Below, piece by piece: positions 1,548 through 19,367 of a stretch of DNA of 64,000 nucleotides. The stretch is from assembly GCA_022509165.1 (NCBI GenBank), contig JAFLTT010000003.1, positions 92,919-156,918 of the forward strand, in the 5' to 3' direction. Position 1 is the first letter of the stretch. Every line of letters starts with the position of its first letter. Below the pieces are notes generated by a model. It saw nothing but the letters and a program-made list of their open reading frames with translations. It searched no databases and was not told the DNA's origin. The translations under genes were made by a program, and so were the position numbers. Origin of the DNA: Muribaculaceae bacterium (GTDB lineage: Bacteria > Bacteroidota > Bacteroidia > Bacteroidales > Muribaculaceae).

Positions 1548-1682
1548 ATATTAATCATCATAATAATTGAGGGAGAGTCGGAAGAGAGGCTCTCCCTTGT
1601 ACTTTTTATCAATATAATCTTATTATAAAGGGTATTGTAAAAAAGTACGCTCATTAAAAATTGAGTTATAAACAAATACACT

Positions 1683-2102: not shown

Positions 2103-3391
2103 AACCAAGAAACAGATACGAAAAACGGATAATCTCTTTGAGCAAAACCTTATCTCCTCTCTCCAAAGCTCAAAGGGAGAAAGCCATTATTAATACTTTA
2201 CCGCATATAGCAAAACGAACAAGCAGAGGGATATTCTTTTGTCTTGAGTGCGGTCATGAATGGAAGAACAATAACAAGGAAATTCCTGATAAAGTGAAGT
2301 GTCCTCATTGTGGAATGGAACTTACTATGGATAGGAGTCGTAAGCGTTCATTCTATTATAAGGATTATTTCAATATTATAACAGTTAAAGCGGGCATACA
2401 AGTAGTAAGAACCTTTTATATTGAATCAAGATTGAGGAAAGGCAGACAGGCACAATACTTTATTTCGGAAGTCTTTCAGAAATGGATAGATCCCAAAGGT
2501 AAGACTGCTCTTATAAGTAAAAGACGGTGCATGTCTTATTATATAGACCAATGGATATTCAGTGATAAATTGGAAATCCGAAGGGAACATATAGCACATT
2601 CTCTAATTCCTGAATATGTTTATCCAAGAATAAAAGTTATCCCTGAAATAAAGAGAAACGGATTCAAAGGAGAGTTTCACAATATCAATCCAAGTCTTCT
2701 TTTTAAAGATGTTTTGACTGATAACAGATGTGAGACACTTCTTAAAACTGGATATGGGAATTTACTGAAATATATCCTTCAGAATAACAAAAGAGGTTTT
2801 GACAGATATTGGAACTCCATAAAAATATGCATTAGAAATGGCTACAAGATTGAAGACCCTTCAATGTGGTGGGATATGGTGATAGCACTTGATTATCTTG
2901 GAAAAGACCTTCATAATCCGAAATATGTTTGTCCAGCAGACCTTAAAGTTGAACATGACAGATGGATCCTCAAGAAAGAGGAAAGGCAGGAACAGGAAAG
3001 ATTGAAAAGAATAAGAGAAAGATATCTGGCAGACTTGGAACAGCAGAAGATCGATGAAAAGGCTTACAGGAAAACCAAGAAAAGATTCTTTGACATTGTA
3101 ATCAGTGACGGAGAAATATCTATCCATGTTCTTAAGAAAGTAAAGGATTTCTATGAAGTAGGTGCCAAGTTGAATCATTGTGTTGGAACCAACCATTATT
3201 ACAATAAACCTAAATCCCTAATACTTTCGGCTGAAATTGATAAAAAGCCTGTGGAGACAATCGAGGTTTCTCTGGATAATCTTGAAATCATGCAATGCCG
3301 TGGAAAACATAATCAAAACACGACTTATCATGATAGGATTGTAAATCTTATGAAAGCCAATATGTCCCAGATTGCTAAAAGGATTTCCTGA
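2099..3391 (+). CDS. PcfJ-like protein
   Basis: 430 aa with an N-terminal CxxC...CxxC zinc ribbon (CLECGHEW...CPHCG). It is translationally coupled to the PcfK-like gene, which is the canonical pcfK-pcfJ pairing. Confidence 0.7.
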   Translation: MKPRNRYEKRIISLSKTLSPLSKAQREKAIINTLPHIAKRTSRGIFFCLECGHEWKNNNKEIPDKVKCPHCGMELTMDRSRKRSFYYKDYFNIITVKAGIQVVRTFYIESRLRKGRQAQYFISEVFQKWIDPKGKTALISKRRCMSYYIDQWIFSDKLEIRREHIAHSLIPEYVYPRIKVIPEIKRNGFKGEFHNINPSLLFKDVLTDNRCETLLKTGYGNLLKYILQNNKRGFDRYWNSIKICIRNGYKIEDPSMWWDMVIALDYLGKDLHNPKYVCPADLKVEHDRWILKKEERQEQERLKRIRERYLADLEQQKIDEKAYRKTKKRFFDIVISDGEISIHVLKKVKDFYEVGAKLNHCVGTNHYYNKPKSLILSAEIDKKPVETIEVSLDNLEIMQCRGKHNQNTTYHDRIVNLMKANMSQIAKRIS

Positions 3392-3419
3392 AATTATAAT
3401 TGTAATGAAAAAATCTTGA

Positions 3420-3472
3420 CGTACATTTTTAAAATAATACTATTAATAAAAATAACCTATTAAAAATGTACG
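3420..3472. repeat. Junction inverted repeat A (CGTACATTTTT / AAAAATGTACG, 31-nt AT-rich centre)
   Basis: 11-bp perfect arms at 3420-3430 and 3462-3472. It starts 28 nt after the pcfJ stop. Confidence 0.85.
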
Positions 3473-3518
3473 CCAAGTAATTGTTTGATAGAAATGATAT
3501 AAATTAAACGCTTTTGAT

Positions 3519-3526
3519 TATATTTG
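3519..3526 (+). promoter_or_regulatory. Bacteroides-type -7 box (TATATTTG)
   Basis: It matches TAnnTTTG, but no well-spaced -33 TTTG was found. Confidence 0.35.
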
Positions 3527-3578
3527 CAACAGATTTCCTAATGGAAGTCATTACATACAAGAGCGTTATTGAACTCTT

Positions 3579-3749
3579 CCTTACAATCAAATTCTCGCAA
3601 AATTTGAATTCCGAATGGGAAGGGAGGCAACAACGCTCACGCTTAGGTTATATTCGTCTATGATAAGACTCTTATTTCCTATAAGGCGTGAGCACTGTTG
3701 CTTATCCATTCGGTAGGCAATGCGAGAAGCCTGATTGTAGGATAAGCAA
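3579..3749 (+). other. Large nested hairpin: a structured leader, ncRNA or ssDNA element
   Basis: Nested complementary pairs: 3579-3589/3732-3741, 3592-3599/3721-3728, 3611-3618/3706-3713, 3627-3632/3696-3701 and 3635-3642/3686-3693. An alternative pairing is 3698-3707/3740-3749. Confidence 0.55.
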
Positions 3750-3821
3750 AATACAGTCCTCACGTTTCTTGTTTTGTATAATCATAAATGTTTCGACGGA
3801 GGATGAGAAACACAGATTATT

Positions 3822-4214
3822 ATGAAAAAATTTAAAATTCTCTTTCTCTTTTTGAGTCTCAGTATGGGTTTCTTGGGTCTAAAGGCTCAATACAACGTTT
3901 TTACTCCTTATGAGGATCCACGTTCTGCACAGTCAGCACCGATACAACAAACTTATGGATACATAAAGTCTTCATCAGGTTGGGTAAGAGTTAATATCCA
4001 AGTCCGAGTATCTGAATACTCTGTAACAGTAGTTGCCTATAAACAAAAAAATAATTCAGGTTATGACCAGTACTATAACACTTATGGAGGAAATAACTGG
4101 ATTAAATGTAATGCTTCAGCACAAGAAGTGACCTCTTTTGAAGATGGACGAGTGGCTGCCAATAATTTTGATTATAAAGCCTATGTGACAGGCTTAGGAA
4201 CTATTTATTTTTAA
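3822..4214 (+). CDS. Small secreted protein (signal peptide), unknown function
   Basis: The hydrophobic N-terminus ends '...LKAQYN'. It is first in a tightly packed three-gene block. Confidence 0.65.
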   Translation: MKKFKILFLFLSLSMGFLGLKAQYNVFTPYEDPRSAQSAPIQQTYGYIKSSSGWVRVNIQVRVSEYSVTVVAYKQKNNSGYDQYYNTYGGNNWIKCNASAQEVTSFEDGRVAANNFDYKAYVTGLGTIYF

Positions 4215-4217
4215 ATC

Positions 4218-4610
4218 ATGAAAAAGATAATAATCTTTTTATTGCCACTGTTATTTAGTTTACAAATTAAAGCTGATGATACTGAGCAGACTAAAGAATT
4301 AGGCCAGATTATAATCCATTTATTGGTGCAAGAGACTGGAGGTTATTCCTTGGAATATAATATTAATGAAGCAAGATTCTATGCAGATATTAAAGTTCCT
4401 TCAATCTATGATAATGAAAAAATTATTCTTAAACTAAATCCATTGTTTAAGAAAGCTGATTTTACAACATTATTGCCATGGGGTATTCAAAATGATGGAT
4501 TTCTCAGAACGATGCAAGCAATTGAGGGCATTCCGATACTTTTTAATTATGATGAGAAGAATCATATTCTTTCATTTGTAATTTTACGTGAAAATACTAT
4601 CAATAAATAA
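4218..4610 (+). CDS. Small secreted protein (signal peptide), unknown function
   Basis: Signal-like N-terminus MKKIIIFLLPLLFSLQIKA. There is a 3-nt gap to the previous gene. Confidence 0.6.
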   Translation: MKKIIIFLLPLLFSLQIKADDTEQTKELGQIIIHLLVQETGGYSLEYNINEARFYADIKVPSIYDNEKIILKLNPLFKKADFTTLLPWGIQNDGFLRTMQAIEGIPILFNYDEKNHILSFVILRENTINK

Positions 4611-4613
4611 AAT

Positions 4614-4937
4614 ATGAAAAGACTAAAAATAATTTTGATTATAATATCGATAATCTCAATACCAGTTATAGTACCTGCTGTTACAATACCAGTACAAGCT
4701 CAATATAATTCTGTAAATACTTGGGAATATATAGGCGATGTAATAGCCACAGATTTAAGTGGAGTATTTACTCGTTCTGGGCAGCTTTATGTTAAAGTCA
4801 TAGGAGGTAGGTTTATTTATAAATTTATTTATAATGATGAAGAATTCTCAGTAACTAAATGTACGGAATATAAAGGTTATAATGCAAAAATAACAAGAGG
4901 TAAAAGTTTTTGGTTGTTGAACGTACCAGAATGGTAG
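4614..4937 (+). CDS. Small secreted or membrane-anchored protein, distant paralog of 3822-4214
   Basis: The hydrophobic N-terminus ends '...VQAQYN', the same AQYN junction as the first gene. Confidence 0.55.
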   Translation: MKRLKIILIIISIISIPVIVPAVTIPVQAQYNSVNTWEYIGDVIATDLSGVFTRSGQLYVKVIGGRFIYKFIYNDEEFSVTKCTEYKGYNAKITRGKSFWLLNVPEW

Positions 4938-5026
4938 TGAAAAATATTTATTCTTAGAGATAGGTTTATACTTTTACAAATATAGTCTTTTTAATATGTT
5001 TTAGGATATATGTAAGACTAATATTA

Positions 5027-5146
5027 CGTACATTTTCTTATAATTATATTTAAATATAGACTTGTTGGAAAATGTACGTTTGAAAATAACCTATCCTTTA
5101 CAAGCTTCGATAATTCATTGACGGTATAAATTATAAAGTGTAAATT
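5027..5146. repeat. Junction inverted repeat B plus conserved ~68-bp downstream module
   Basis: Arms lie at 5027-5036 and 5069-5078. The 5069-5146 stretch is nearly identical to 7226-7302. Confidence 0.85.
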
Positions 5147-5179
5147 TTTTCTCTTTTAATTTGATAACATTATTTAAAT

Positions 5180-5320
5180 ATGGTAACATTAATTATATTA
5201 TTAGCATTATTATGTTTATCTTCAATTTTACTACCCTGTTTAACTTTTTTGTTGTTAGTATATAAGGGAGATAAAGAATTAAAAAAAGAAAAAAGATTTA
5301 AAAACTTTGTCTATTATTAG
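5180..5320 (+). CDS. Possible 46-aa single-TM peptide
   Basis: Manual translation gives MVTLIILLALLCLSSILLPCLTFLLLVYKGDKELKKEKRFKNFVYY*. The stop lies 2 nt before the next ATG. It sits in an AT-rich region, so it could be fortuitous. Confidence 0.3.
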   Translation: MVTLIILLALLCLSSILLPCLTFLLLVYKGDKELKKEKRFKNFVYY

Positions 5321-5322
5321 AA

Positions 5323-6273
5323 ATGAATAAATCTTTTTTGAATAATAAAATCACCATGAAAGAAGATTTAGAATCAAGAATAGAAAAACTCAAGCAAAGA
5401 AGATACCGCTATCAAAATAGTGAGGGGAAATGGGGATATACAGATGTGTTTGGTAAAGTAGTAGAAACAGCTCATTTGGATTCTTTTCCAGATAATTCTT
5501 ACGATATTAAAGGTGCCAGAGAATTGGATACAAAACCTCCTTTAACTTATAGGGAATTAATTAACCAATATACTGAATATCCTTTGGGAAATAAAAAAGA
5601 AATTGAAGACTGGTTTGAATTAACAGATTGTGTTGAAAGATATTTTCCTAATGAGGAATCTGTGTCGCCTGAAAAAGTGGTTTCATTTGATAGTAAATAT
5701 GATGTTGTAAGAATAGACTATGGGAAGGTTGATATTGTAGATTCTGGATTCATAGGTTATGGTATCAAGGAAAAGAACAATTTAATAGCAGATTGTGAAT
5801 TTACTAACATTTACCCTTTTTCAGAAGGTTTAGCCCGAGTTGCTAAAACAGATCTTTTCGATAGACCATATTCTCCATTGTTCCGTAATTTAGAAAAACA
5901 AGATATTGAAAGGAATTTAGACACAAATAATAAGTTAATTTATGATAAAATCCTGAAAGAAAATGGAGAATTATATTGGGGATTTATCAACGAGAAGGGA
6001 GAGAAACAAATCCCTTTAAAATATTTTAATGCTTCAGATTTTCATGAGGAACTTGCAGCCGTTAATCGAAGCTGGGATAATGAAGAATGGGGTTATATAG
6101 ATAAACAGGATAATATTGTTATCCCTTTTAAATTTGATTGGGCTGGAGATTTTCAAGATGGTTTTGCAAGGGTTCTTTATGCAGGTCTCTATTATGTTAT
6201 TGACAAAGAAGGATTCTGTTACGAATCCTTTGATGAAATCGAAATGGGACAAGGAAGTAAATTCTATTTATAA
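5323..6273 (+). CDS. WG-repeat (KWG-type) protein
   Basis: Repeated 'KWGYTDVFGKVV', 'YWGFINEKGEKQIPLKY' and 'EWGYIDKQDNIVIPFKFDWAGDFQDGFARV' motifs. Confidence 0.75.
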   Translation: MNKSFLNNKITMKEDLESRIEKLKQRRYRYQNSEGKWGYTDVFGKVVETAHLDSFPDNSYDIKGARELDTKPPLTYRELINQYTEYPLGNKKEIEDWFELTDCVERYFPNEESVSPEKVVSFDSKYDVVRIDYGKVDIVDSGFIGYGIKEKNNLIADCEFTNIYPFSEGLARVAKTDLFDRPYSPLFRNLEKQDIERNLDTNNKLIYDKILKENGELYWGFINEKGEKQIPLKYFNASDFHEELAAVNRSWDNEEWGYIDKQDNIVIPFKFDWAGDFQDGFARVLYAGLYYVIDKEGFCYESFDEIEMGQGSKFYL

Positions 6274-6288
6274 AACCATACAACATCT

Positions 6289-6534
6289 ATGATAAACTGG
6301 CTTTATTATAAAGAAAAATTAAGACAAAAATGGATAAAATCTAAAGTAAGTAAGGTCTATTGGAATACTGTGCTTACTTTAGGCTGGGGACTCAAGATAA
6401 TACCAACTTCATATTGCATTAAGTGTCAAGACAACATAGGAAATTATTTATCTAATCTTACTTTTGTTGATAGATATACTAAATTTGATGACATTATGAT
6501 GCGATGGTACTCATTCAATTTTCATAAAATATAA
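6289..6534 (+). CDS. Hypothetical 81-aa protein
   Basis: ORF only, co-oriented and 15 nt after the previous stop. Confidence 0.35.
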   Translation: MINWLYYKEKLRQKWIKSKVSKVYWNTVLTLGWGLKIIPTSYCIKCQDNIGNYLSNLTFVDRYTKFDDIMMRWYSFNFHKI

Positions 6535-6584
6535 ATATGTTTTAAGTGCAAGATGTTTGTCTACTTTAATACAAATATTTTGAA

Positions 6585-7133
6585 ATGATATTAATAAAGA
6601 ATAAACGTTGTTCTCAGGAGAAGCTTCTAAATGAATATCCTGATGCTATTATAATTGACGTGACGAGTAAGGGAGAAGGTGAATGGCAGAAACTTTCTCC
6701 CTTCTATCCTCATGGTGGAATTCCTGTTCCGTTCAGTGATGAAGCAACTTCAATGAGTGTGGAAGGCATTTGGCAAGGTCTGAAAGTTTTTGAATCTACT
6801 GACATAGATAGAAACTCTTTTCGTAACGGAACAATGAAAGGAATTAAGCGTACCGTGAGAACTAATGGAAAATGTTTAGGACATAGAAAAGGAATAAACG
6901 GTAAAGAACTGTTAGGATATATTGAAGCCCGAAAAGAGATATATGTTCCGTCTTATAATTGGATATTGGAGAATAAATGTCAGGAACAAATCAAGAAAAT
7001 TAGAATAATGTCACGGTCAAAACCAATAATTCTTTTGGATTATGACACTAATGATGATGTAGAGAATCCGACCAAGCCATTATCCCATGCTTCTCTGATA
7101 AAGAAGTTTGTAGATAACCTTAAAAATGAATAA
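6585..7133 (+). CDS. Hypothetical protein with tentative NADAR-like motif spacing
   Basis: 'LSPFYPHGGIPVPF...SVEGIWQGLKVF' loosely parallels the NADAR/YbiA pattern 'LSNFYP...F.S.EH.FQ..KF'. This is by-eye similarity only. Confidence 0.3.
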   Translation: MILIKNKRCSQEKLLNEYPDAIIIDVTSKGEGEWQKLSPFYPHGGIPVPFSDEATSMSVEGIWQGLKVFESTDIDRNSFRNGTMKGIKRTVRTNGKCLGHRKGINGKELLGYIEARKEIYVPSYNWILENKCQEQIKKIRIMSRSKPIILLDYDTNDDVENPTKPLSHASLIKKFVDNLKNE

Positions 7134-7182
7134 TTAGTTTGAAAATGGTTTGAACCAAGAATCAGTTGCCTATTGGACGAAG

Positions 7183-7302
7183 CGTACATTTTACAAAGAT
7201 ATTATAAATAATAAATAATTGGAATAAAATGTACGTTTGAAAATAACCTATCCTTTACAAACTTCGACAATTCATTGACGGTATAAATTATAAGTGTAAA
7301 TT
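7183..7302. repeat. Junction inverted repeat C plus conserved downstream module
   Basis: Arms lie at 7183-7192 and 7226-7235. The 7226-7302 stretch matches 5069-5146 with 2 substitutions and a 1-nt indel. Confidence 0.85.
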
Positions 7303-7309
7303 AGTATTC

Positions 7310-8185
7310 ATGAAAGAAAAGCCGATTCAAGAAACAACTTCCACTTACTTCAACAATATTTTGATGAAAGCAATTGCTCCTAAATCAATTGAGGAGATTG
7401 ACCCTCAAATGATAAAGGATTTCAATAATGCAATTGATGATGCCTTTACAGATGATTCGGAAACAGTTAGAATAAGGTTGAAATATCTGATCCCATATAT
7501 TATCCAGAATATTGACTGGGTGGAATATGGAATTCCTCTTGAAGCATGGCAACTGAAATATTATTACCAAAGGGATAGGTTTTTGAAAATGACCCATCTT
7601 TCCTATGATGAATTCATGGATCATGAACTGCTTCAACAATCAATAGATGAACTTGGACTTGATCCCGCACCAGTCTTTGAATTCATTCTCTTCCTTTCCT
7701 ATTATTATGGATTGAGAGCAGATCTGAAATACTCATCTTACGAGCAACTTTCTAAATTGAAACAGGCATTAGAAGGTAATAATGGTGAAGTTTCTATGGA
7801 TGTTGTAGTAAACGGAAAACACTTCAAATTCAGTAACTCTAATTTTATCAAGACCTTGTTTTCAAACATTGATTCAGATAAATTGAATTACGGAGCATTC
7901 AGCAATAACTTTGAGGAAGGGAGTTCAAGAGAGAAAATAAGGGCATTGGATTATTATCTGATCAAAACATTGCTTGATTTTCTCCCTATCAAGAGCGAAA
8001 GGAAGAAAGGGAAATACACCCAGTCTGAAAGAAATTTCTCTTTATGTGTATTGAACTACTGTGGAAGATTGCAAGGAGATGAACCTGAAATAATCTGTTC
8101 CCAGTTCAACAATGCCACATTCGACAAACTCATGAGAGATTTTAAGGAAATAGACATTCCTTTTGCAATGGAGTTATTTCTTTAA
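7310..8185 (+). CDS. Hypothetical 291-aa protein
   Basis: Long ORF with protein-like composition. No motif recognised. Confidence 0.55.
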   Translation: MKEKPIQETTSTYFNNILMKAIAPKSIEEIDPQMIKDFNNAIDDAFTDDSETVRIRLKYLIPYIIQNIDWVEYGIPLEAWQLKYYYQRDRFLKMTHLSYDEFMDHELLQQSIDELGLDPAPVFEFILFLSYYYGLRADLKYSSYEQLSKLKQALEGNNGEVSMDVVVNGKHFKFSNSNFIKTLFSNIDSDKLNYGAFSNNFEEGSSREKIRALDYYLIKTLLDFLPIKSERKKGKYTQSERNFSLCVLNYCGRLQGDEPEIICSQFNNATFDKLMRDFKEIDIPFAMELFL

Positions 8186-8204
8186 AATTCAACAATTTAT
8201 AAAT

Positions 8205-8232
8205 GCGTAAATTTTTCTAAAAATTTTTACGC
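8205..8232. repeat. Compact variant of the junction hairpin (GCGTAAATTTTT-CT-AAAAATTTTTACGC)
   Basis: GCGTAAA/TTTACGC arms lie 19 nt after the stop at 8185. The arm sequence is related to GCGTACATTTT. Confidence 0.6.
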
Positions 8233-8244
8233 TGTTTTATGCTT

Positions 8245-8285
8245 GTGATACTTTATAATTTTGTACCGTCAAAAAGAAGTATCAC
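8245..8285 (+). promoter_or_regulatory. Hairpin (GTGATACTT/AAGTATCAC) enclosing a -7 box TAATTTTG and an inverted TTGACGGTA-type motif
   Basis: 9-bp arms at 8245-8253 and 8277-8285. The -7 match lies at 8256-8263, 38 nt upstream of the ATG at 8301. 8254-8272 is the reverse complement of the motif at 5118-5136. Confidence 0.45.
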
Positions 8286-8300
8286 TTAATTTTTTGTTAT

Positions 8301-8726
8301 ATGTCAGATTTTATTAACAACTTCAAAGCAGTTCATCACTTCATCAAGGGCATCTTCGCCAACTCCAAAGGAGAATATACCCTCACGTTCGTTCAGGATC
8401 CAGATGACAAATGGTACATTGATATGCCATGGTCGGGCAATCGAGCCAATCTTGAAATGGTGGCAGGAGCTGATGACCTCCTTACTTATCTCGATGAGGA
8501 GGGAAATCACAAGGTGACTATACATGTGGTTCCTTCTGAGACTCCTCTTGAAGTGGAAGATCATACAGAGCTCCGTCAGTTGGATAAATCAACTTTCGGT
8601 GGAAGTCATTATGACGCTACAGATTTTGAGGGATTCCGAATGAGTAAGATTTGGATATGTCCCGTTACCCTCTGTGTGTTGGGTTGTTATCCGAAATATC
8701 TTTACATTAAGAAAGTAGCCGCTTAA
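8301..8726 (+). CDS. Hypothetical 141-aa protein
   Basis: ORF with natural-looking composition. No motif recognised with certainty. Confidence 0.55.
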   Translation: MSDFINNFKAVHHFIKGIFANSKGEYTLTFVQDPDDKWYIDMPWSGNRANLEMVAGADDLLTYLDEEGNHKVTIHVVPSETPLEVEDHTELRQLDKSTFGGSHYDATDFEGFRMSKIWICPVTLCVLGCYPKYLYIKKVAA

Positions 8727-8736
8727 AAATCACTTA

Positions 8737-8760
8737 GGGGAGAATATTAAAGTTCTCCCC
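8737..8760 (+). terminator. GC-rich hairpin (GGGGAGAA-N8-TTCTCCCC)
   Basis: 8-bp perfect stem 10 nt after the stop at 8726. There is no clear U-tract. Confidence 0.4.
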
Positions 8761-8808
8761 TCCAAAAACAAACTATAGAAAAATTATAAATGTCAAAAAG
8801 AAAATATT

Positions 8809-9000
8809 ATGGCATGGTTAACAATAGATAAGAATGGAGAGGAATGGATATTTCAAAATGAACCTATATTAAAAAATGGAGAATGGTATGAAAAATATGT
8901 AATGCTACCTCCATTAGAATGTGTACAAGTTCCTGAAGGAACTATTGAAAAAATATTGGGATATAAATTAACATTAGAAACATCTCCTGTGGAGATTTGA
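8809..9000 (+). CDS. Hypothetical 63-aa protein
   Basis: ORF with protein-like composition (MAWLTIDKNGEEWIFQNEP...). Confidence 0.45.
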   Translation: MAWLTIDKNGEEWIFQNEPILKNGEWYEKYVMLPPLECVQVPEGTIEKILGYKLTLETSPVEI

Positions 9001-9048
9001 AGGTAATTGTGATGCAGTTGCCTTGATATAGAAATATTTATCCACTTA

Positions 9049-9786
9049 ATGAATATACTGACTTATAAAATTGAATCTATGGAAAATAAAAATAAAATGA
9101 CAGAAGAAGACAAGAATCGTAAGGCATATTACGCTCTGAAAGAGATACAGAGAAAGTACGGGTTTGACAATATTGCAAAACTCAGGGAATTTCATAAAGA
9201 AGTTTCAAAATTGTTCTTTGATTACGACCGAGAAGAAAATATATTTAAATGGGAGGGATTTGAACCCACTTTTAAAGAAATCTTCAAATTCTTCTCTGAG
9301 ATGGATACTATGGATGAATCTGAAATAGATAAAGCTTATAGTGGGTTAACGGGATTGTTAAATGAAGAAAAAATGACCCCTAAAATACTTGGATTCATTC
9401 ATGAAACCTATACTTCACGGTTATCGGAACCTGAGAAACTCCGCCGTAGAATTATAAAAGAAGGATTGGATATTGAAAAGACGCTCAGAGATTATTATAA
9501 AGATGAAATTGAAAAGAAATATAGGAATGTTTTTAAGCGAGTAATTGATTTTGCTTTTGAGTTCCCGAATGAATACTCTGATTGGACTAACCAAAGGTTA
9601 AATAAAGAGATTCATATGTACAAACGTCAATTTGAAGATATTGCTAACACAATGAGAGAGGCGAGCATTCCAAATAATATTATTAACGACTTTTTAAGAT
9701 ATGCTATTGTGATACCAGATTATAGGAAGAGAATTCAAGAAGCTTGGGAAAAACAAAGAGCAGAAAGACAAAGCCGAATGAATTGA
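9049..9786 (+). CDS. Hypothetical charged, helical 245-aa protein
   Basis: Long ORF. The start is uncertain, with an alternative Met 10 codons in. Confidence 0.55.
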   Translation: MNILTYKIESMENKNKMTEEDKNRKAYYALKEIQRKYGFDNIAKLREFHKEVSKLFFDYDREENIFKWEGFEPTFKEIFKFFSEMDTMDESEIDKAYSGLTGLLNEEKMTPKILGFIHETYTSRLSEPEKLRRRIIKEGLDIEKTLRDYYKDEIEKKYRNVFKRVIDFAFEFPNEYSDWTNQRLNKEIHMYKRQFEDIANTMREASIPNNIINDFLRYAIVIPDYRKRIQEAWEKQRAERQSRMN

Positions 9787-9796
9787 ATTATACCAA

Positions 9797-9851
9797 GCGT
9801 ACATTTTATGAAAAATATTATATTTGGTAATATTTAACGTAAAATGTACGC
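9797..9851. repeat. Junction inverted repeat D (GCGTACATTTT / AAAATGTACGC)
   Basis: 11-bp arms at 9797-9807 and 9841-9851, 10 nt after the stop at 9786. AAAATAACCTAT follows at 9856-9867. Confidence 0.85.
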
Positions 9852-9973
9852 TCCCAAAATAACCTATCAGAAGACTTAATGCAATAAAGGTTTGGAATAA
9901 CAGGTGAATTTTTTGATCGTCCTGTTTACCATTTATAAGGTTTCAGTATATTCTAATAATATGAAATAATAAA

Positions 9974-10654
9974 ATGAAGAAAACATTTGTAAATATACTT
10001 TCTATGGTTGCGATAAGTCTGTCGCTATTTATTCTAATGGCTTGTAGCAGAGATAAACAAATAACTGTTTGTTTTGTGCCATTGGATGGAATCAATAAAT
10101 CTCAGATAGAGCAATTGAAGAAAGAGTTCAAGGAAAATTTCACTGATAAAAGGAAGGAAGTTTTCTTTGTGGAGAGTCTGGAACATTTCAACACTCCTGA
10201 TTCATGCATCAATAAGAAGTATCATAGGTTTGAAGCAGGGACAATGCTCAAATTCCTGGATAATCAATTTGGAGAGTCAGCCAATCGGATAGCTGGTGAA
10301 AAGTCGGAAAATGGGTCTTCAGATTATTACATTATTGGCGTGACAAACAAAGATATTTCCACTCCCGTACATGGTAAAGAGAATTATGGAATACTTGGGT
10401 TATCAACATTAGGAGGAAATGTAAGTGTGATTTCCACTTACAGACTAAGAAATAAGAAAGAACTGTGGAAATTGGCAATGCATGAATTCGGTCATGGATA
10501 TTATAGTCTAAGACACTGCCCGAATGATGATCCGAGCTGCATCATGGCGGATGCTAAAGGTGGAAATCCCCATTTTGAATTGAAGGATACTTTATGTTCC
10601 ACCTGCTATGAAAAAAGCCTGAGACCAGATATCTTAAGAAAAATAATTAATTGA
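9974..10654 (+). CDS. Archaemetzincin-like (M54-type) zinc metalloprotease lipoprotein
   Basis: The lipobox is 'LMACS'. 'HEFGHGYYSLRHCPNDDPSCIM...(16 aa)...CSTC' fits HExxHxxGxxxCx4CxM-X17-CxxC apart from the G position. Confidence 0.75.
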   Translation: MKKTFVNILSMVAISLSLFILMACSRDKQITVCFVPLDGINKSQIEQLKKEFKENFTDKRKEVFFVESLEHFNTPDSCINKKYHRFEAGTMLKFLDNQFGESANRIAGEKSENGSSDYYIIGVTNKDISTPVHGKENYGILGLSTLGGNVSVISTYRLRNKKELWKLAMHEFGHGYYSLRHCPNDDPSCIMADAKGGNPHFELKDTLCSTCYEKSLRPDILRKIIN

Positions 10655-10679
10655 TTTTATTCATTTAAAAATAAAGATT

Positions 10680-10871
10680 ATGAAAAAGTTTATTTTTGCC
10701 GTTGTAGCAGTCATGGGATTGGGAGTTATATCATGTTCACATAACAATCAGAAGACTGAAGAAACAGCACAGATAGAGGAAGAAGAAATTGGATGTCTAT
10801 GTTGTCCTGTAGAAGAAGCTCCAGCAGATACATTGGATTTTGTTGCTCCAATTCCATAGATTAATCTATAA
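10680..10871 (+). CDS. Small lipoprotein (63 aa by manual translation); not in the supplied ORF track
   Basis: MKKFIFAVVAVMGLGVISCS... is a classic lipoprotein signal with a Cys. The ORF lies 25 nt after the metzincin stop. Its C-terminal part looks odd; see findings. Confidence 0.4.
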
Positions 10872-10885
10872 AGGGAAAAGTGAAA

Positions 10886-10940
10886 GCGTACATTTTTAGA
10901 TGTGATTTATAATAATTATAGATTAAATAAAAATGTACGC
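10886..10940. repeat. Junction inverted repeat E (GCGTACATTTTT / AAAAATGTACGC)
   Basis: 12-bp arms at 10886-10897 and 10929-10940, with a 31-nt AT-rich centre. Confidence 0.85.
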
Positions 10941-11003
10941 TCCTTTTATAGATAAAATTATTTGAATTAATTTTGAAAGTCAATATCTTAAAATCATTAC
11001 ACT

Positions 11004-11654: not shown

Positions 11655-11771
11655 GATTCGTTAGCTCAGCAGGTTGCATTTGAAAGGAGAGCCGAAGGCG
11701 AGCCTTTTAAATGCGTAAGAGAAACAACACTTTTAATGTTGGGGTCCTGGGTTCGAGCCCCAGGCGGATCA
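11655..11771 (+). tRNA. tRNA-Lys(UUU)-like gene carrying a 39-nt hairpin insertion in the D-loop (117 nt; possibly non-functional)
   Basis: - Acceptor GATTCGT pairs with GCGGATC, using 2 G-U pairs.
- The D-stem 5' strand is GCTC.
- The anticodon arm is CAACA-CTTTTAA-TGTTG.
- The T-arm is CTGGG-TTCGAGC-CCCAG.
- An extra hairpin lies at 11676-11714. Confidence 0.6.
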
Positions 11772-11777
11772 CTCCCC

Positions 11778-11816
11778 AAAATTGCAATTAATTGTTAATC
11801 AATTAATTGCAATTTT
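11778..11816 (+). terminator. Long AT-rich hairpin plus T-tract after the tRNA-like gene
   Basis: AAAATTGCAATTAATTG-TTAAT-CAATTAATTGCAATTTT, followed by TTCTTTTCC. Confidence 0.6.
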
Positions 11817-12239
11817 TTCTTTTCCTGAATGGCCCTACCGTTGCACCACAGAATTCTGTAATTCCATTCCAGAATCGCCGAATCATTAGGATTTTATTCA
11901 AAATTTTACTTGTAGTGGATAAAAAACTTATAATTTTATCCAATACAGAGTAAATAATGGATAAATTAGAAAAATTTTTAATTTGCAATGTTTATTTCCG
12001 GTGGCCTCTGGTTTCAAGCCATCGGGTTTGGTTTTTTTGGGCCGGAGAATCTTCCCGGGGATTAGTTGCATAATAATTATATTTCCCTCTATCTTCTATG
12101 CTGAAACTCCCTATAGATCGCAAATAATTCATTAGTGTACCTTTTACTTTAAATAGGAGTTTAAGAAGTTTAATAACGGAATGGCCGGTAAAATCATTAA
12201 CTTTGTTAATTGAAATAGTAAACTCTTAATCAAGCATAA

Positions 12240-14012
12240 ATGGGAACAGAAGAACTGTCGAAAAGAACCACTGTAAACATTCAAGAGAAGGCAAATCTTA
12301 TTTGGGCTATAGCCGATAAGTTGGTAGGCACATACAAGCCCCATGAGTATGGAAATGTAATCCTTCCCATGTGCGTTATAAAGCGTTTTAGCGATACTTT
12401 GGCACCAACCAAGCAAAAGGTTATTGACACCAATGAAATGCTTGAGAAACGAGGATTAGCGGTTAAAGATGGGTTCTTACGTAGTGCCTCCGGTTATGAT
12501 TTCTATAACACTTCGCCTTTCACTTTTGAAGGTCTGCTCTCCGATCCTGAGAATATAGCCGACAATTTACGCAGTTATCTAAATCATTTCTCCAACAATG
12601 TGATTGATGTCATCGAAAAATTCGATTTCGACAAGGAGATAACCAAACTTGACAACAACGGCATCCTATACAACGTAATAGCCGAGTTCAACACAAAGAA
12701 GGCTTACATGGGTGCTGATGAGATTTCAGCGGTCGACATGGGCTATATATTCGAGGAATTAGTAAGGAAATTCTCTGAAAGTTATGATGAACAAGCGGGA
12801 GCACATTTCACAGCAAGGGATATTATTTATCTGATGGCTGAATTGCTTGTGGCTCCCAGACGTAAGGAACTTCAAGAGGAAGGTATAACAGCGAGTGTCT
12901 ATGACATGGCGATGGGTACTTCACAGATGTTGGATTGTTTGAGCGAAAAACTCCATGAGATTGATGAGGATGCACAGTTGACGGAGTTCGGTCAGGAACT
13001 TAATGAGCAGACCTTCGCCATTGCCAAAGCAAATATGCTTATCAAGGGAGGAAATGCCGAGAATATGAAGCATGGAAACACACTTTCCGATGATAAATTC
13101 AGTGGTTATAAATTCGATTACATTATATCTAATCCCCCATTCGGCATTGAATGGAAAAATGAGAAATCAGCAGTTGAAGCCGAGCATAAATTAGGTGAAG
13201 CAGGTCGTTTTGCCCCTGGACTTCCTGCGATCGGAGATAGTCAGCAACTCTTTGTTCTCAATGGTGTAGCCAAGTTGAAGGATAACGGTAGAATGGCTAT
13301 TATTCAGAATGGTTCTCCTTTATTCAAGGGAGACGCTGGAAGTGGAGAAAGTAATATAAGAGGTTATCTTTTGGAAAATGATTGGATTGAAGCCATTGTT
13401 CAGATTCCGAATGATATGTTCTATAACACTGGCATAGCAACCTATATATGGGTAATCACAAAGGAAAAATCAGCGGAAAGAGTTGGTAAGGTTCAACTGA
13501 TAGATGCTTCCAAATGTGGAGTTAAGAGAAGAAAATCTATCGGTAGCAAGAGAAACGAGTTCACGGATGAGTGTATATCCCTTATCTCCAAAGCTTACGA
13601 TGAGTTCAAGGATGCACATTATAAAGATGAAGAAATCGACATAGAGGTGGAATCCAAGATAAAGGATGTTGAGGATTTCAAATTTAGCAAAGTAACTGTA
13701 GATAGACCTATTACAGATGAAAATGGAAATCCCATTTTGAAGAAAGGGAAACCACAAGCCGACAGTGGGAAGAGAGATACGGAAACAATTCCATGGAAAG
13801 AAAAGATAGAAACCTACATGGAGAAAAATGTCTATCCCTACGCTTCCGACGCATGGATAGATGAGAAGAAAACCAAGATAGGTTATGAGATACCATTCAC
13901 AAGAGAGTTTTACAAATATGCTGCTCCGAGAAATAGCGAAGAAATATTTGCATCCCTTCAATCGCTTGATGAGAAAGAACAAGAATTAATGGCTAAAATA
14001 ATCGGGCGATGA
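12240..14012 (+). CDS. hsdM: Type I restriction-modification system, methyltransferase subunit M
   Basis: HsdM-type N-terminus, the 'NPPFG' catalytic motif, and an ATGA overlap with hsdS. Confidence 0.93.
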   Translation: MGTEELSKRTTVNIQEKANLIWAIADKLVGTYKPHEYGNVILPMCVIKRFSDTLAPTKQKVIDTNEMLEKRGLAVKDGFLRSASGYDFYNTSPFTFEGLLSDPENIADNLRSYLNHFSNNVIDVIEKFDFDKEITKLDNNGILYNVIAEFNTKKAYMGADEISAVDMGYIFEELVRKFSESYDEQAGAHFTARDIIYLMAELLVAPRRKELQEEGITASVYDMAMGTSQMLDCLSEKLHEIDEDAQLTEFGQELNEQTFAIAKANMLIKGGNAENMKHGNTLSDDKFSGYKFDYIISNPPFGIEWKNEKSAVEAEHKLGEAGRFAPGLPAIGDSQQLFVLNGVAKLKDNGRMAIIQNGSPLFKGDAGSGESNIRGYLLENDWIEAIVQIPNDMFYNTGIATYIWVITKEKSAERVGKVQLIDASKCGVKRRKSIGSKRNEFTDECISLISKAYDEFKDAHYKDEEIDIEVESKIKDVEDFKFSKVTVDRPITDENGNPILKKGKPQADSGKRDTETIPWKEKIETYMEKNVYPYASDAWIDEKKTKIGYEIPFTREFYKYAAPRNSEEIFASLQSLDEKEQELMAKIIGR

Positions 14013-15370: not shown

Positions 15371-15542
15371 TTTTGCGGCCGAAAATTTTGACCACAAATT
15401 CCTAAATACTTACTTCAAAGCCGAATATATAGACTTTGAAAAATGGAAAGGTGATCAAAATTTTTGACCACCTACTAAGTATTCATTAATTTTCAAGATC
15501 AATATTTTTGACTTTGAAAACAAAATCAAAAACAATACATTA

Positions 15543-19234: not shown

Positions 19235-19297
19235 ATATCTATAATTACAAATTAAATAACAGATAACGAACAACGAGTATTAGATTATCTGTGTAAA

Positions 19298-19367
19298 GGT
19301 CTGATAAGCGAGGCACATTCAAATACTTTTAATGTTGGGGTCCTGGGTTCGAACCCCAGGCAGATCA
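19298..19367 (+). pseudogene. Degenerate tRNA-Lys(UUU)-like unit with a collapsed D-arm; right-hand direct repeat
   Basis: - Acceptor GGTCTGA/GCAGATC pairs at 6 of 7 positions.
- The anticodon loop is CTTTTAA.
- The T-arm CTGGG-TTCGAAC-CCCAG is perfect.
- Only 14 nt occupy the position where a 17-nt D-arm is expected. Confidence 0.55.

Follow-up and report, generated by a model that had tools for sequence, protein, structure and literature searches.

In integrons, gene cassettes are delimited by attC sites, one at the 3′ end of each cassette, with conserved inverted ends and a variable centre. In the Bacteroidales, rAID-1 clusters combine a recombinase with repetitive intergenic sequences (bioRxiv 10.1101/471110). 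A formally similar layout is found in a 64,000-nt stretch of a Muribaculaceae bacterium (contig JAFLTT010000003.1, positions 92,919 to 156,918; hereafter the window), for which cassettes each closed by a member of one hairpin family, as first proposed, are a fair description.

The suggested kinship with integrons fails on each testable defining feature. No IntI is encoded, the integrase present scoring 38.8 bits on the integron-integrase model against a cutoff of 265 bits. The repeats are not attC sites: they have no RYYYAAC/GTTRRRY core, no extrahelical bases and no fixed crossover point, and the cassettes appear to have promoters.

A Hairpin Family Private to One Integrative Element

A search of the window for CGTACATTTT-N25-45-AAAATGTACG recovered the five predicted exact CGTACATTTT-N31-33-AAAATGTACG inverted repeats (cores of hairpins A to E, Table 1), whereas none of 100 dinucleotide-preserving shuffles held a match (chance expectation 0). 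With at most one mismatch allowed, the 10-mer arm is found 17 times, where 4.45 ± 2.06 would be expected. The family is nevertheless not quite the one originally described. A sixth in-window copy, Y, was found with a covariance model and relaxed scans, and three more, X1, X2 and Z, belong to the part of the element that precedes the window. They were read from an ENA contig (L109) matching the window at 100% identity across 13,391 nt and bring the total to nine. Hairpin F, formerly taken for a compact variant, was rejected as a member: it gave no covariance model match at E ≤ 1 and is a short unrelated terminator-like hairpin.

The consensus, AGCGTACATTTTT - 27-31 nt - AAAAATGTACGCT, describes palindromic stem-loops of ~55 nt (53-57 nt). 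The arms common to all copies measure 10-14 nt, sometimes about 25 nt, and are strictly conserved, with half-sites spaced by 41-43 bp from centre to centre; the spacer is free in sequence and nearly constant in length (30-33 nt), and the interiors are unrelated between copies. Y carries symmetric changes in both half-sites.

All nine copies are located inside one 19.4-kb integrative element with tRNA-Lys repeats at its ends. The recombinase that the original prediction proposed to look for upstream of the window is present in this element, as a tyrosine recombinase (integrase) of the Arm-DNA-bind_5 / SAM_5 type, 9.6 kb from the hairpin array and beside its own tRNA-Lys att site; the adjoining tRNA-Lys gene provides, by its 3′ end, the 50-bp direct repeat. 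Pfam and PHROG scans assigned none of the element's genes to tra or relaxase functions, several backbone ORFs remaining without annotation; hence it is a tRNA-Lys integrative element and not the conjugative transposon that had been supposed.

Outside this element, the covariance model found no family copy in the flanking 52 kb of the window, nor in L107, L108, L118 and L119. Of the 185,579 species genomes surveyed, a single further one, a Muribaculaceae MAG, has exact copies, and these lie in homologous DNA; two further collections yielded no homologous copies. The family is private to one mobile element and to cargo remnants of related elements, rather than being spread over gene ends of the core genome as a generic terminator would be. 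Intact hairpins persist in chromosomal remnants, with no integrase or backbone gene in the remnant DNA examined, which argues for a function via host factors.

This distribution bears on the view that the repeats are selfish miniature palindromes (REP- or MITE-like) multiplied in the element lineage, with effects on termination and recombination as by-products. Such an origin would fit their short terminal inverted repeats, their intergenic position after stop codons and their many copies in little DNA, as well as the case of D, which separates orthologous genes in the window and L120 but is lacking in L117. It is nonetheless quite improbable: the interiors are unlike those of MITEs in being unrelated, D shows neither a target-site duplication nor clean insertion boundaries, about 75 nt downstream of it being missing from L117 as well, no RAYT or IS200/IS605 transposase was seen, and copies number zero in the surrounding host chromosome and almost none in the genomes surveyed.

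Table 1. Features of the hairpin-bearing region, in window coordinates
Feature	Position	Strand	Details
Canonical intrinsic terminator after radC	1568..1599	+	12-bp stem with 6 G-C pairs, then TACTTTTTAT
Hairpin Y	1595..1652 (core 1599-1648)	+	Arms TGTACTTTTT / AAAAAGTACG, 32-nt spacer; between radC and pcfK; 52.2 bits (covariance model); ortholog in L106 at 9496-9554
Hairpin A	3417..3475 (core 3420-3472)	+	28 nt 3′ of pcfJ stop codon; 92% identical counterpart in Muribaculaceae MAG HAN061 (L039), decayed one in L106
Bacteroidetes-type -7 box TATATTTG	3519..3526	+	47 nt 3′ of hairpin A; conserved in L039 and L106 (alignment)
Hairpin B	5024..5081 (core 5027-5078)	+	89 nt 3′ of stop codon of 107-aa gene (end of three small signal-peptide genes); ortholog in L121 at 1215-1272
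-7 box TACGTTTG	5075..5082	+	Overlaps right arm of hairpin B
Junction unit, two copies	5069..5136 and 7226..7293	+	Right arm and 58 nt downstream; 66/68 nt identical; contains box GAAAATAACCTATCC
Hairpin C	7180..7238 (core 7183-7235)	+	49 nt 3′ of DUF6939 stop codon; left joint of five-gene indel vs L121
-7 box TACGTTTG	7232..7239	+	Overlaps right arm of hairpin C
Five-gene segment with 291-aa gene, hairpin F, DUF6717, 63-aa gene and 245-aa gene	7254..9794	+	Missing from L121 (BLAST, alignment)
Hairpin F (non-member)	8205..8232	+	GCGTAAATTTTTCTAAAAATTTTTACGC; compact, 28 nt, GCGTAAA stem, then TGTTTT; 19 nt 3′ of stop codon of 291-aa gene; kept, with U-tract, in L117 at 4040-4068
Hairpin D	9795..9853 (core 9798-9850)	+	11 nt 3′ of stop codon of 245-aa gene; right joint of indel vs L121; decayed ortholog in L120 at 9827-9883
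-7 box TATATTTG	9819..9826	+	Within loop of hairpin D
Metzincin-like 226-aa gene and 59-aa lipoprotein gene	9974..10859	+	Recurs with hairpin E elsewhere
Hairpin E	10884..10942 (core 10887-10939)	+	27 nt 3′ of stop codon of 59-aa lipoprotein gene; then CTCCTTTT
-7 box TAATTTTG	10968..10975	+	29 nt 3′ of hairpin E, 36 nt 5′ of 158-aa gene
attR	11724..11773	+	50-bp direct repeat of tRNA-Lys gene 3′ end (L109:201-250); right end of element

Folding and Covariation of the Hairpins

The fold of each of the five exact copies is much more stable than those of its shuffles (z = -4.3 to -8.0). The arms pair in 91% of cells, against 33-61% when the partner is slid, and double changes are found in five pairs, with one base pair seen as C-G, U·G and U-A and position 6 as A-U and U-A. 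The E copy of L117 contains a G·U wobble and a loop of different sequence that is still self-complementary. The original prediction of conserved arms and completely different centres is correct for the sequence of the loops, but these do have structure: the loops of all nine copies together reach -95.2 kcal/mol versus -66.4 ± 6.2 kcal/mol for shuffled loops, a value attained by none of 1000 shuffles. The additional loop pairing is substantial in B, D, E and X1; in A, C, X2 and Z, the upper stem does not outperform shuffled sequence. Self-complementary loops could stem from quasi-palindrome template-switch mutation, and not from selection. Folding of both strands gave the more stable structure on the sense strand in 15 of 18 copies, corresponding to 10 of 12 independent loci; this bias and the U·G intermediates favour a single-stranded structure. 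A separate rod-like structure of roughly 250 nt is located 3′ of hairpin A.

Hairpins with a strand bias might work in ssDNA form while the element is transferred or replicates as a rolling circle, as priming sites (ssi) or by providing the single-strand promoters of a leading region. Their neighbours, which are AAA_24/Sak4-like, RadC, PcfK and PcfJ genes, are typical of DNA-entry regions, and the rod-like structure beside A would also suit such a function, which is nevertheless highly improbable. Besides the lack of identified transfer genes, the nine sites in 19 kb far exceed known ssi or Frpo sites in density and breadth and, contrary to the leading-region element first envisaged, spread throughout the element, including beside the integrase and at a convergent junction; no promoter-like -33/-7 pair is found in the stems, and copies persist in chromosomal remnants that are not mobile.

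Placement, Promoters and Termination

Eight of the nine copies lie 10-89 nt 3′ of a stop codon, and the distances predicted for A to F hold (Table 1). X2 is placed between convergent genes. Z, located in a divergent intergenic region beside iteron-like repeats, precedes the first gene of a long operon and has no co-oriented upstream gene. Wherever an intergenic gap of the element reaches 100 nt, it contains a hairpin, which belongs to the family in nine cases, is F in one and is an unrelated inverted repeat in one (DUF3871-radC).

A T-rich tail is seen only in E and, weakly, in B and C, and the 8 nt 3′ of the stem contain 31% T over the nine copies, which is background; hence most copies are not canonical intrinsic terminators. 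The view of these repeats as poor terminators is only half right: most lack a U-tract, but the view does not allow for the extra loop pairing of B, D, E and X1 or for the tail of E, which is U-rich in the window, L117 and L120 and T/C-rich in HAN061. In all three (window, L117 and L120), E also keeps its position 26-27 nt 3′ of the small lipoprotein gene. The T-run in the left arm of Y also supplies the U-tract for the canonical terminator after radC.

Sense-strand TAnnTTTG -7 boxes are enriched in intergenic DNA (9 of 19 in 19% of the length, p = 0.005), as compared with 4 of 17 on the antisense strand. They follow or overlap X1, Z, A, B, C, D and E, at distances ranging from within the loop to +47 nt, and one is also located 3′ of the non-member F; Y has none nearby. 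The gene blocks appear to carry their own promoters.

The position of most copies just upstream of promoters, and of Z in a divergent control region, recalls the stoperators of mycobacteriophages and the KorB operators of IncP plasmids. Accordingly, the repeats might be dsDNA targets of a global regulator encoded by the element; acting as a repressor or as a roadblock to transcription, it would silence or coordinate all of the element's transcription units. The strict conservation of the arms around a spacer constrained in length only, the symmetric half-site changes in Y and the restriction of the family to the element are compatible with such a regulator. It remains unlikely, since such a half-site spacing would be atypical of a dimer, the -7 box lies at no constant distance, X2 is at a convergent junction, Y lacks a nearby box, and the U·G intermediates and sense-strand bias point to single-stranded structure. 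Furthermore, no recognisable DNA-binding protein is present among the backbone ORFs, and intact copies are found in chromosomal remnants with no backbone gene able to encode a regulator in the remnant DNA examined.

Alternatively, the conserved double-stranded stems, lying between and ahead of cistrons, could be RNA processing sites whose cleavage yields discrete stabilised mRNAs, similar to the RNase III sites of phage T7. The size is suitable, a 13-bp conserved lower stem and an imperfect upper stem amounting to some two turns of helix; the copies are intergenic and mostly devoid of a U-tract, the sense strand folds better, and Z precedes the first gene of a long operon as R0.3 does in T7. 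However, because promoters follow most copies, a polycistronic precursor is unnecessary. In addition, A, C, X2 and Z have upper stems that do not exceed shuffled sequence, X2 separates convergent genes, and we know of no RNase III-type processing sites in Bacteroidota, which together make such cleavage a poor prospect.

Exchange of Gene Blocks at the Hairpins

Cassette content is not invariant in relatives. Gene blocks have been gained, lost or swapped at the hairpins, with breakpoints in them or within 20 nt, most clearly in the case of the five genes between C and D. These are absent from L121, in which a single intact, in-register hybrid hairpin joins DUF6939 to the metzincin-like gene, its upstream flank having the context of C while its loop and downstream flank belong to the D lineage. 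Homology with L121 begins exactly at the left arm of B (window 5027), the upstream genes being different. Within the window, B and C have the right arm and the following 58 nt in common, with unrelated loops and left flanks.

At E, homology with the window extends past the hairpin by 8 nt in L117, 16 nt in L120 and about 5-14 nt in L046, and stops inside the loop in two contexts (L118/L119), where only the left half of E is left. In L117 and L120 the E ortholog comes after the same pair of genes; in L046 it comes after a second metzincin-like paralog. The metzincin-like gene and E recur in five genomic contexts, and the small partner gene in three of the four other than the window; the protein reaches 65 bits on the NCBIfam archaemetzincin model, below the 145-bit cutoff.

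Structural variants coincide with the hairpins: 7 of 37 homology endpoints fall within 20 nt of one (p = 0.006, uniform placement). Restricted to intergenic endpoints, the enrichment is weak (7 of 14 versus 30% expected, p = 0.09).

These joints revive the possibility of attC-like site-specific sites, folded from ssDNA and recognised by a tyrosine recombinase, either the integrase of the element or one acting in trans, with cassettes acquired as in integrons or rAID clusters. One site of 53-57 nt per block 3′ end, with conserved inverted ends and a variable centre, the hairpin-to-hairpin indel in L121, the replacement, starting exactly at B, of the block upstream of it, the tyrosine recombinase, the better sense-strand fold and the rAID-1 precedent would all agree with this. 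Nevertheless, it is doubtful. The integrase is an ordinary element integrase, distant from the array and far below the integron cutoff, core sites and extrahelical bases are absent, and the blocks appear to have their own promoters. Breakpoints are scattered over the left arm, loop and right arm, hairpins are found in the backbone too, including the convergent junction, and block order is collinear in all relatives seen, with no sign of cassette shuffling among them. Moreover, cargo also varies in the sister elements L107 and L108, which have none of these hairpins.

Hairpin-Ended Cargo Units as a Proposed Explanation

The explanation that we favour, at a little under an even chance, is that the repeats are 3′-end transcript hairpins of autonomous cargo units resembling phage morons, and also joints for short-homology recombination. 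It is weakened by the background T content 3′ of the stems, in an element that also contains canonical terminators (1568-1599), by the weak enrichment among intergenic endpoints and by the alternative template-switch origin of the loops. A generic terminator role also does not itself explain identical arms across paralogs beside fully diverged loops, and Z has no co-oriented upstream gene to terminate.

According to the transcript-hairpin explanation, for which we infer both the RNA-level action and the recombination mechanism, each hairpin would belong to the 3′ end of its gene block and be followed by the promoter of the next, so that a cargo block would constitute, like a moron, an autonomous promoter-genes-hairpin unit. 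In the sense transcript, the hairpin would act as a terminator or insulator and as a shield against 3′ exonucleases. Because all copies have the same arms, the hairpins may also function as joints, at which recombination, either short-homology or hairpin-provoked, would delete, insert or replace blocks.

The hairpin family and its carrier

A gapped pattern search finds CGTACATTTT-N31-33-AAAATGTACG at exactly five places in the window, hairpins A to E, and in 0 of 100 dinucleotide-preserving shuffles of the window, so that the five arm-spacer-arm copies of the original prediction are real. The genes assigned to the neighbouring blocks are also confirmed, namely PcfJ, three small genes, a WG-repeat block ending in DUF6939, a 291-aa gene, a 245-aa gene, and a metzincin-like gene (226 aa) with its 59-aa lipoprotein partner (the metzincin pair). 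Counted singly and with at most one mismatch, the arms have 17 occurrences where 4.5 are expected. A relaxed scan (GTAC[AT]TTT-N24-41-AAA[AT]GTAC, at most one mismatch per arm), run beside the covariance model R1, recovers nine family copies in a 19.4-kb element: A to E, a sixth window copy (Y) and three copies upstream of the window (X1, X2 and Z). R1 has no family match in the window's other 52 kb, outside the element, and the motif is thus not scattered at the ordinary gene ends of that DNA. The compact hairpin F, formerly counted as a family variant, is a separate 28-nt hairpin followed by TGTTTT and is not detected by the covariance model.

Positions of the hairpins and of other features of the element and its relatives (bare numbers are window positions)
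Feature	Position	Context
Left copy of 50-bp direct repeat	L109:201-250	3′ end of intact tRNA-Lys
Tyrosine integrase (int)	L109:365-1561	just inside the left repeat
X1	L109:1592-1641	29 nt 3′ of the int stop codon
X2	L109:3994-4044	at a convergent gene junction
Iteron-like repeats	L109:5990-6230	~1.6-1.9 kb upstream of window position 1
Z	L109:6606-6655	divergent control region; AAA_24 begins 278 nt further on
GAAAATAACCTATCC box	L109:6853-6868	66 nt ahead of the AAA_24 start codon
Canonical terminator features	1568-1599	
Y	1599-1648	3′ of the canonical radC terminator
A	3420-3472	behind a gene block
GAAAATAACCTATCC box	3449-3460	within the loop of A
Promoter box of rod-like region	3519-3526	
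Rod-like structured region	3530-3810	directly behind A
B	5027-5078	behind a gene block
GAAAATAACCTATCC box	5082-5096	directly 3′ of B
C	7183-7235	behind a gene block
GAAAATAACCTATCC box	7239-7253	directly 3′ of C
F	8205-8232	not a family member
D	9798-9850	behind a gene block
GAAAATAACCTATCC box	9856-9868	directly 3′ of D
E	10887-10939	behind a gene block
tRNA-Lys-like attR region	11655-11773	
Right copy of 50-bp direct repeat	11724-11773	
Palindrome and T-run	11778-11816	immediately past attR
Tract beyond attR	11774-19367	
Type I restriction-modification genes	12240-19234	hsdM, hsdS, ORF6N gene, hsdR
Second, complete tRNA-Lys	19298-19367	
Module junctions in HAN061	L039 380-500 (reverse strand); L046 1270-1310	
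Compact hairpin copy	L120:7781-7820	T-rich tail
Toxin-antitoxin cassettes	L120 8479-9151; 11110-11794	nucleotidyltransferase/HepT
tRNA-like remnants	L120 9365-9440; 11895-12000	behind the toxin-antitoxin cassettes
DUF6939 arrays	L122 2636-4232; L123 6719-8552	

The window matches the ENA contig k141_939705 (L109) at 100% identity over 13,391 nt (L109 coordinate = window coordinate + 7863), which makes the DNA upstream of the window readable. The recombinase sought there was found as a tyrosine integrase beside the att site, a tRNA-Lys whose 3′ end recurs as a 50-bp direct repeat; hence, the hairpins belong to a 19.4-kb integrative element. Its backbone runs int, a 156-aa gene, a 609-aa gene, three reverse-strand genes, AAA_24/Sak4-like, DUF3871, RadC, PcfK and PcfJ, followed by the cargo blocks. 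The 609-aa gene carries a putative DExH-like helicase motif, read from the alignment; Pfam gave no significant match. Pfam and PHROG scans of the backbone ORFs, of which several stay unannotated, identified no tra genes and no relaxase, which argues that the element is not a conjugative transposon.

Beyond attR, the type I restriction-modification genes precede a second, complete tRNA-Lys that bears a 43-bp, 95%-identical version of the att repeat, and this tract has the look of a further island, without an integrase, placed in tandem at that tRNA site. The attR region itself resembles a tRNA-Lys gene whose D and anticodon arms are separated by an insert of ~51 nt, on which ARAGORN makes no call. 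Similar insert-bearing, tRNA-like remnants occur in L120, a contig with homologs of the cargo proteins, where they adjoin repeats of the motif TGTAAACC, which are candidate arm sites of an integrase. Immediately past attR lies a 17-bp perfect palindrome (AAAATTGCAATTAATTG ttaat CAATTAATTGCAATTTT), then a T-run. Upstream of the window, three iteron-like repeats of ~30 nt (TATAAGGGAGTCGTGGAGAACTTTTTGGACAC and variants) share a 1-kb divergent intergenic region with hairpin Z, and this repeat region may be a replication origin or a control region.

The family is private to one element lineage. Species-representative genomes totalling 596 Gb contain the exact pattern in 49 stretches only, most of them lone matches in unrelated phyla or members of single-MAG families; window homology is found in only two, both contigs (L039 and L046) of the Muribaculaceae MAG HAN061, with two exact copies. 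Homologous copies are absent from the JGI metagenomes (56 stretches) and IMG/VR (6 stretches). Three sister elements, with PcfJ 83-84% identical, all have a variable cargo region 3′ of pcfJ; one (L106) has five family members and two (L107 and L108) have none. Plasmid collections gave two weak matches only, 3337-3684 and 3459-3587, corresponding to hairpin A and the structured region behind it, and phage collections gave no match. Exact-protein look-ups of the window proteins returned the source contig only, or nothing. Rfam at gathering thresholds reports a tRNA and nothing else over the whole window, and chance miRNA-model matches only on 3380-3900 at E <= 1. A literature search for the arm sequence retrieved unrelated primers and miRNA constructs only. 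The view that no described element carries this arm sequence is therefore upheld for Rfam and the searched literature.

Placement at the ends of gene blocks

Eight of the nine copies lie 10-89 nt downstream of a stop codon, Z being the exception, and X2 serves two convergent genes. All intergenic gaps of at least 100 nt in the element contain a hairpin: nine hold a family member, one F and one an unrelated inverted repeat (DUF3871-radC). The Bacteroidetes-type -7 box reportedly has the consensus TAnnTTTG, as described by Bayley and co-workers in 2000. On the sense strand, 9 of 19 such boxes are intergenic, while intergenic DNA makes up 19% of the element (p = 0.005; composition predicts 2.4); on the antisense strand, 4 of 17 are. 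A predicted sense -7 box is located within or at most 47 nt past X1, Z, A, B, C, D and E, and likewise past the non-member F. Stop-adjacent hairpins with boxes behind them give a layout of stop codon, hairpin, predicted promoter and next block.

The arms themselves were considered as -7 boxes (TACATTTT compared with TAnnTTTG) and rejected, as the two arms would fire convergently into the 30-nt loop. Scans for sigma-70 promoters and simple terminators, using models unsuited to Bacteroidota, showed no enrichment over shuffles. GTAC as a restriction or avoidance signal was uninformative, the tetranucleotide being depleted everywhere (43 vs 58 expected in the element, 69 vs 160 in the chromosome).

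A second conserved box, GAAAATAACCTATCC, is found directly 3′ of B, C and D, within the loop of A and ahead of AAA_24, and is also present behind both hairpins of the related contig L121. Possible roles for it are a common transcript 5′ end or the site of a regulator, within a hairpin-promoter junction unit. Directly behind hairpin A, a rod-like structured region of ~250 nt is kept in HAN061 (L039), L106 and L107 and matches no Rfam family. Compensatory changes affect 23 of its 82 predicted pairs (three sequences only), and several G·U pairs are invariant, which points to the + strand as the folding strand. Candidate identities for this region are a leader, an sRNA and an element acting as single-stranded DNA.

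The family as a whole does not combine the G+C-rich stem, short loop and immediate U-tract of a canonical intrinsic terminator, features that are present in F and at 1568-1599. The hairpin tops span 27-33 nt, and the 8 nt behind the nine stems average 31% T. The original prediction of poor terminators holds for most copies, with A+U-rich stems and no T-rich tail, and does not extend to E, which is T-tailed (CTCCTTTT), more strongly so in the relatives' contigs L117 and L120, nor fully to B and C, which are weakly so. The compact L120 copy is also T-tailed.

Folding of the hairpins

The hairpins measure 53-57 nt, and each of copies A to E folds well below its own shuffles (z = -4.3 to -8.0). 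In an alignment of 13 copies, 91% of the cells of the 13-bp lower stem are paired, against 33-61% with the partner slid; five stem pairs show both-sided changes, and the covariation score lies above all 500 shuffles. The stem-base pair occurs as C-G, U·G or U-A, and position 6 as A-U or U-A, with A·A intermediates in X1 and X2. These two copies flank the gene pair encoding the 156-aa and 609-aa proteins and join an 'A-type' left arm (GTACATTTT) to a 'Y-type' right arm (AAAAAGTAC), giving the identical mismatch; they are either duplicates of one another or hybrids of two arm subtypes.

The L117 ortholog of E has one G·U wobble, and its loop is unrelated in sequence yet self-complementary again. 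Summed over nine copies, the loops are more stable than their shuffles (-95.2 vs -66.4 +/- 6.2 kcal/mol); taken singly, those of A, C, X2 and Z are not. The sense strand forms the more stable fold in 15 of 18 copies, corresponding to 10 of 12 independent loci, which favours a single-stranded sense form (RNA or DNA) rather than a site that is duplex only. Complementarity could also be regenerated without selection, by quasi-palindrome template-switch mutation. In the best-supported reading, the hairpins are transcript 3′-end structures that double as recombination joints: each would form the 3′ end of the transcript of its gene block, where it would insulate or terminate transcription and shield the transcript end.

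Hairpins as proposed joints in relatives

Further contexts were reached through homologs of the metzincin-like protein and of DUF6939. The metzincin-like gene with hairpin E was found in five settings. In the window, the metzincin pair is followed by E and a 158-aa gene. In HAN061, the small gene before E is replaced by a second metzincin-like paralog, chromosomal genes follow, and matE and an aminotransferase gene flank the module. The remaining settings are beside a polysaccharide-utilisation locus (L117), adjoining a tRNA-Lys (L118/L119), and amid toxin-antitoxin pairs and att remnants (L120). Window homology stops 8 nt past E in L117, 16 nt in L120 and about 5-14 nt in HAN061, where the left third of the E loop differs too, and within the E loop in L118.

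The cargo module of HAN061 corresponds to window 3324 to ~10945, with the last ~70 nt of pcfJ as a remnant at its left edge; both contigs end within the module, so that its interior is missing, and both of its junctions abut low-complexity TCTATTC/CACTATT repeats. In L120, the two toxin-antitoxin cassettes, each followed by att-like and tRNA-like remnants, are interleaved with DUF6939 and DUF6717 fragments and the metzincin block, and the region looks like an array of decayed tandem islands. DUF6939 genes lie directly behind NADAR, ADP-ribosylglycohydrolase or NUDIX genes in the related arrays L122 and L123, which hints at an ADP-ribose-linked role for this uncharacterised family.

The association of block breakpoints with hairpins, raised as a test by the original prediction, is clearest in L121. 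In this contig, one intact hairpin links DUF6939 to the metzincin-like gene, and the five genes of window 7254-9794 are missing. This hairpin is a hybrid, with the upstream flank of the C context and the loop and downstream flank of the D lineage (L120), the crossover being somewhere within the ~25 nt common to both. An assembly chimera is unlikely: the k141_ name suggests a final k-mer of 141 nt, so that the two parts of a chimera would have to overlap exactly over ~141 nt, whereas C and D share only ~25 nt. Elsewhere in L121, homology begins exactly at the B left arm, and the genes upstream of B differ. Hairpins B and C of the window agree with each other at 66 of 68 nt over the right arm and the 58 nt downstream, and have nothing in common to the left.

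Over all comparisons, 7 of 37 homology endpoints fall within 20 nt of a hairpin (p = 0.006, uniform placement); restricted to intergenic endpoints, the figure is 7 of 14 vs 30% expected (p = 0.09). Several further breakpoints lie away from hairpins. An inversion of the sole reverse-oriented block, between X2 and Z, finds no support, as Z is not the expected reciprocal hybrid.

The in-register C x D hybrid, the block replacement beginning at B and the presence of the metzincin block with E in five contexts would also be accounted for if the hairpins were recombination sites of an unrecognised cassette-exchange system of Muribaculaceae or Bacteroidales integrative elements. Such a system would be functionally integron-like, with one site per cassette 3′ end, folded single-stranded and served by a non-IntI tyrosine recombinase, and with self-promoted cassettes; this is improbable, and there is a minority chance that the hairpins are true cassette-recombination sites. 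The likeness to integron attC sites is formal: one imperfect palindrome of similar size per cassette 3′ end, with conserved ends and a variable centre, co-oriented blocks, and an indel with both ends inside palindromes. In contrast to an integron, the sole recombinase of the element (Arm-DNA-bind_5, Phage_int_SAM_5 and Phage_integrase domains) lies 9.6 kb upstream of the array at its own tRNA-Lys att site, with no attI or Pc beside the array, and scores 38.8 bits on the integron integrase model TIGR02249 (cutoff 265) and 20.6 bits on NF011946 (cutoff 435). The arms, (G)CGTACATTTT / AAAATGTACG(C), differ from attC (RYYYAAC ... GTTRRRY, L''/L') in having no AAC/GTT core, no extrahelical bases and no conserved bulges. 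Unlike promoterless integron cassettes with a common Pc, the blocks carry -7 boxes of their own, as far as the sequence predicts. Integrons gain and lose cassettes at a fixed crossover inside the site; on this point the picture here is mixed, with the in-register C x D indel on one side and, on the other, breakpoints that fall variously in a left arm, a loop or a right arm. The three contigs that cover several of the positions B to E (window, L120 and L121) all keep the collinear order B<C<D<E, and the cassette reordering of integrons is not seen. Integron membership fails.

Comparison with other known systems

The reading of the hairpins as transcript 3′ ends and recombination joints brings the cargo close to phage morons, which are reportedly (Juhala, Hendrix) promoter-gene-terminator units inserted between phage genes. 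Like morons, the blocks are small, co-oriented and AT-rich, with a predicted -7 box upstream and a 3′ stem-loop, and the presence/absence boundaries between relatives coincide with stem-loops. All these features are present, the promoters and terminators being sequence-based predictions. In contrast to moron terminators, which are mutually unrelated and mostly have U-tracts, all units here share one conserved hairpin sequence, found at backbone junctions too, and they are carried by an integrative element instead of a phage.

REP and BIME sequences are imperfect palindromes of 3′ untranslated and intergenic DNA that act as 3′-end stabilisers or partial terminators and are recombination hot spots. 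The hairpins resemble the enterobacterial REP/BIME in form and location; unlike REPs, which have hundreds of chromosomal copies and are tied to RAYT, they number nine in a single mobile element, with none in the flanking chromosome. In contrast to MITEs, their interiors cannot be aligned between copies. A clean MITE-like insertion of D was not seen, the comparison of contigs with D (window, L120) and without it (L117) showing neither clean boundaries nor a target-site duplication. REP and MITE membership hence fails on copy distribution and unrelated interiors.

The stoperators of cluster A mycobacteriophages are asymmetric, oriented duplex sites of 13-14 bp bound by the phage repressor. The hairpins are similarly an element-private sequence that recurs at gene ends, in many short stretches of intergenic DNA; unlike stoperators, they are palindromic, measure 53-57 nt, show evidence of folding on a specific strand and survive where no neighbouring backbone gene is seen. 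The suggestion that they are single-stranded elements of conjugative DNA is not sustained: Frpo-type promoters are ~300-nt hairpins with promoter boxes in the stem, in the conjugative leading region, whereas these copies are much smaller and, unlike Frpo or ssi, are spread over the whole of an element in which no tra gene or relaxase was identified.

Within its own bacterial order, the closest precedent for the array is rAID-1, compared here by description, its motifs being figure logos. It comprises Bacteroidales arrays of small, co-directional, low-GC genes, whose repetitive intergenic sequences are called 'reminiscent of integrons', with a tyrosine recombinase in the locus, and is defined by a XerD-like recombinase on the 5′ side that shares 44% identity or more with BF9343_RS08045 and is followed directly by two or more co-directional genes with a GC content no higher than 41% (Ross et al., bioRxiv 10.1101/471110). 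The present array shares the order, low GC (33%), gene direction, repetitive intergenic sequences and a tyrosine recombinase in the locus, and differs in that its integrase is not immediately 5′ of the array. T6SS immunity families were not recognised in the element cargo. The hairpin family is a variation on known kinds, namely moron terminators, REP-like 3′ hairpins and rAID-like repeats.

Significance of the hairpins

With a 3′-end hairpin of its own, each cargo block would be an autonomous, moron-like unit, and, through their shared arms, the hairpins would be favoured sites of recombination, whether by short homology or provoked by the hairpin itself. The family, its confinement to the element, its placement, its pairing pattern and the structural variants that coincide with hairpins are established by the data; we infer both the action at the RNA level and the mechanism of recombination. 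The 3′-end reading leaves the strict conservation of the arm sequence and the role of Z unexplained, which keeps a sequence-specific factor (a regulator or a recombinase) in play. Should the hairpins prove to be recombinase substrates, they would represent a system of gene acquisition that resembles integrons and lies outside the IntI family.

The hairpin family accounts for the fragmented assemblies of these regions and is a handy marker for locating cargo arrays. If transcript 3′-end hairpins do double as recombination joints, they would offer a compact insulator part for Bacteroidales genetics and a clear example from nature of a mobile element that standardises the junctions of its parts, one hairpin both insulating independently transcribed cargo and supplying the short homology for cargo exchange. 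This would provide a testable mechanism for the assembly and reshuffling of accessory genes in the small integrative elements of gut Bacteroidales.
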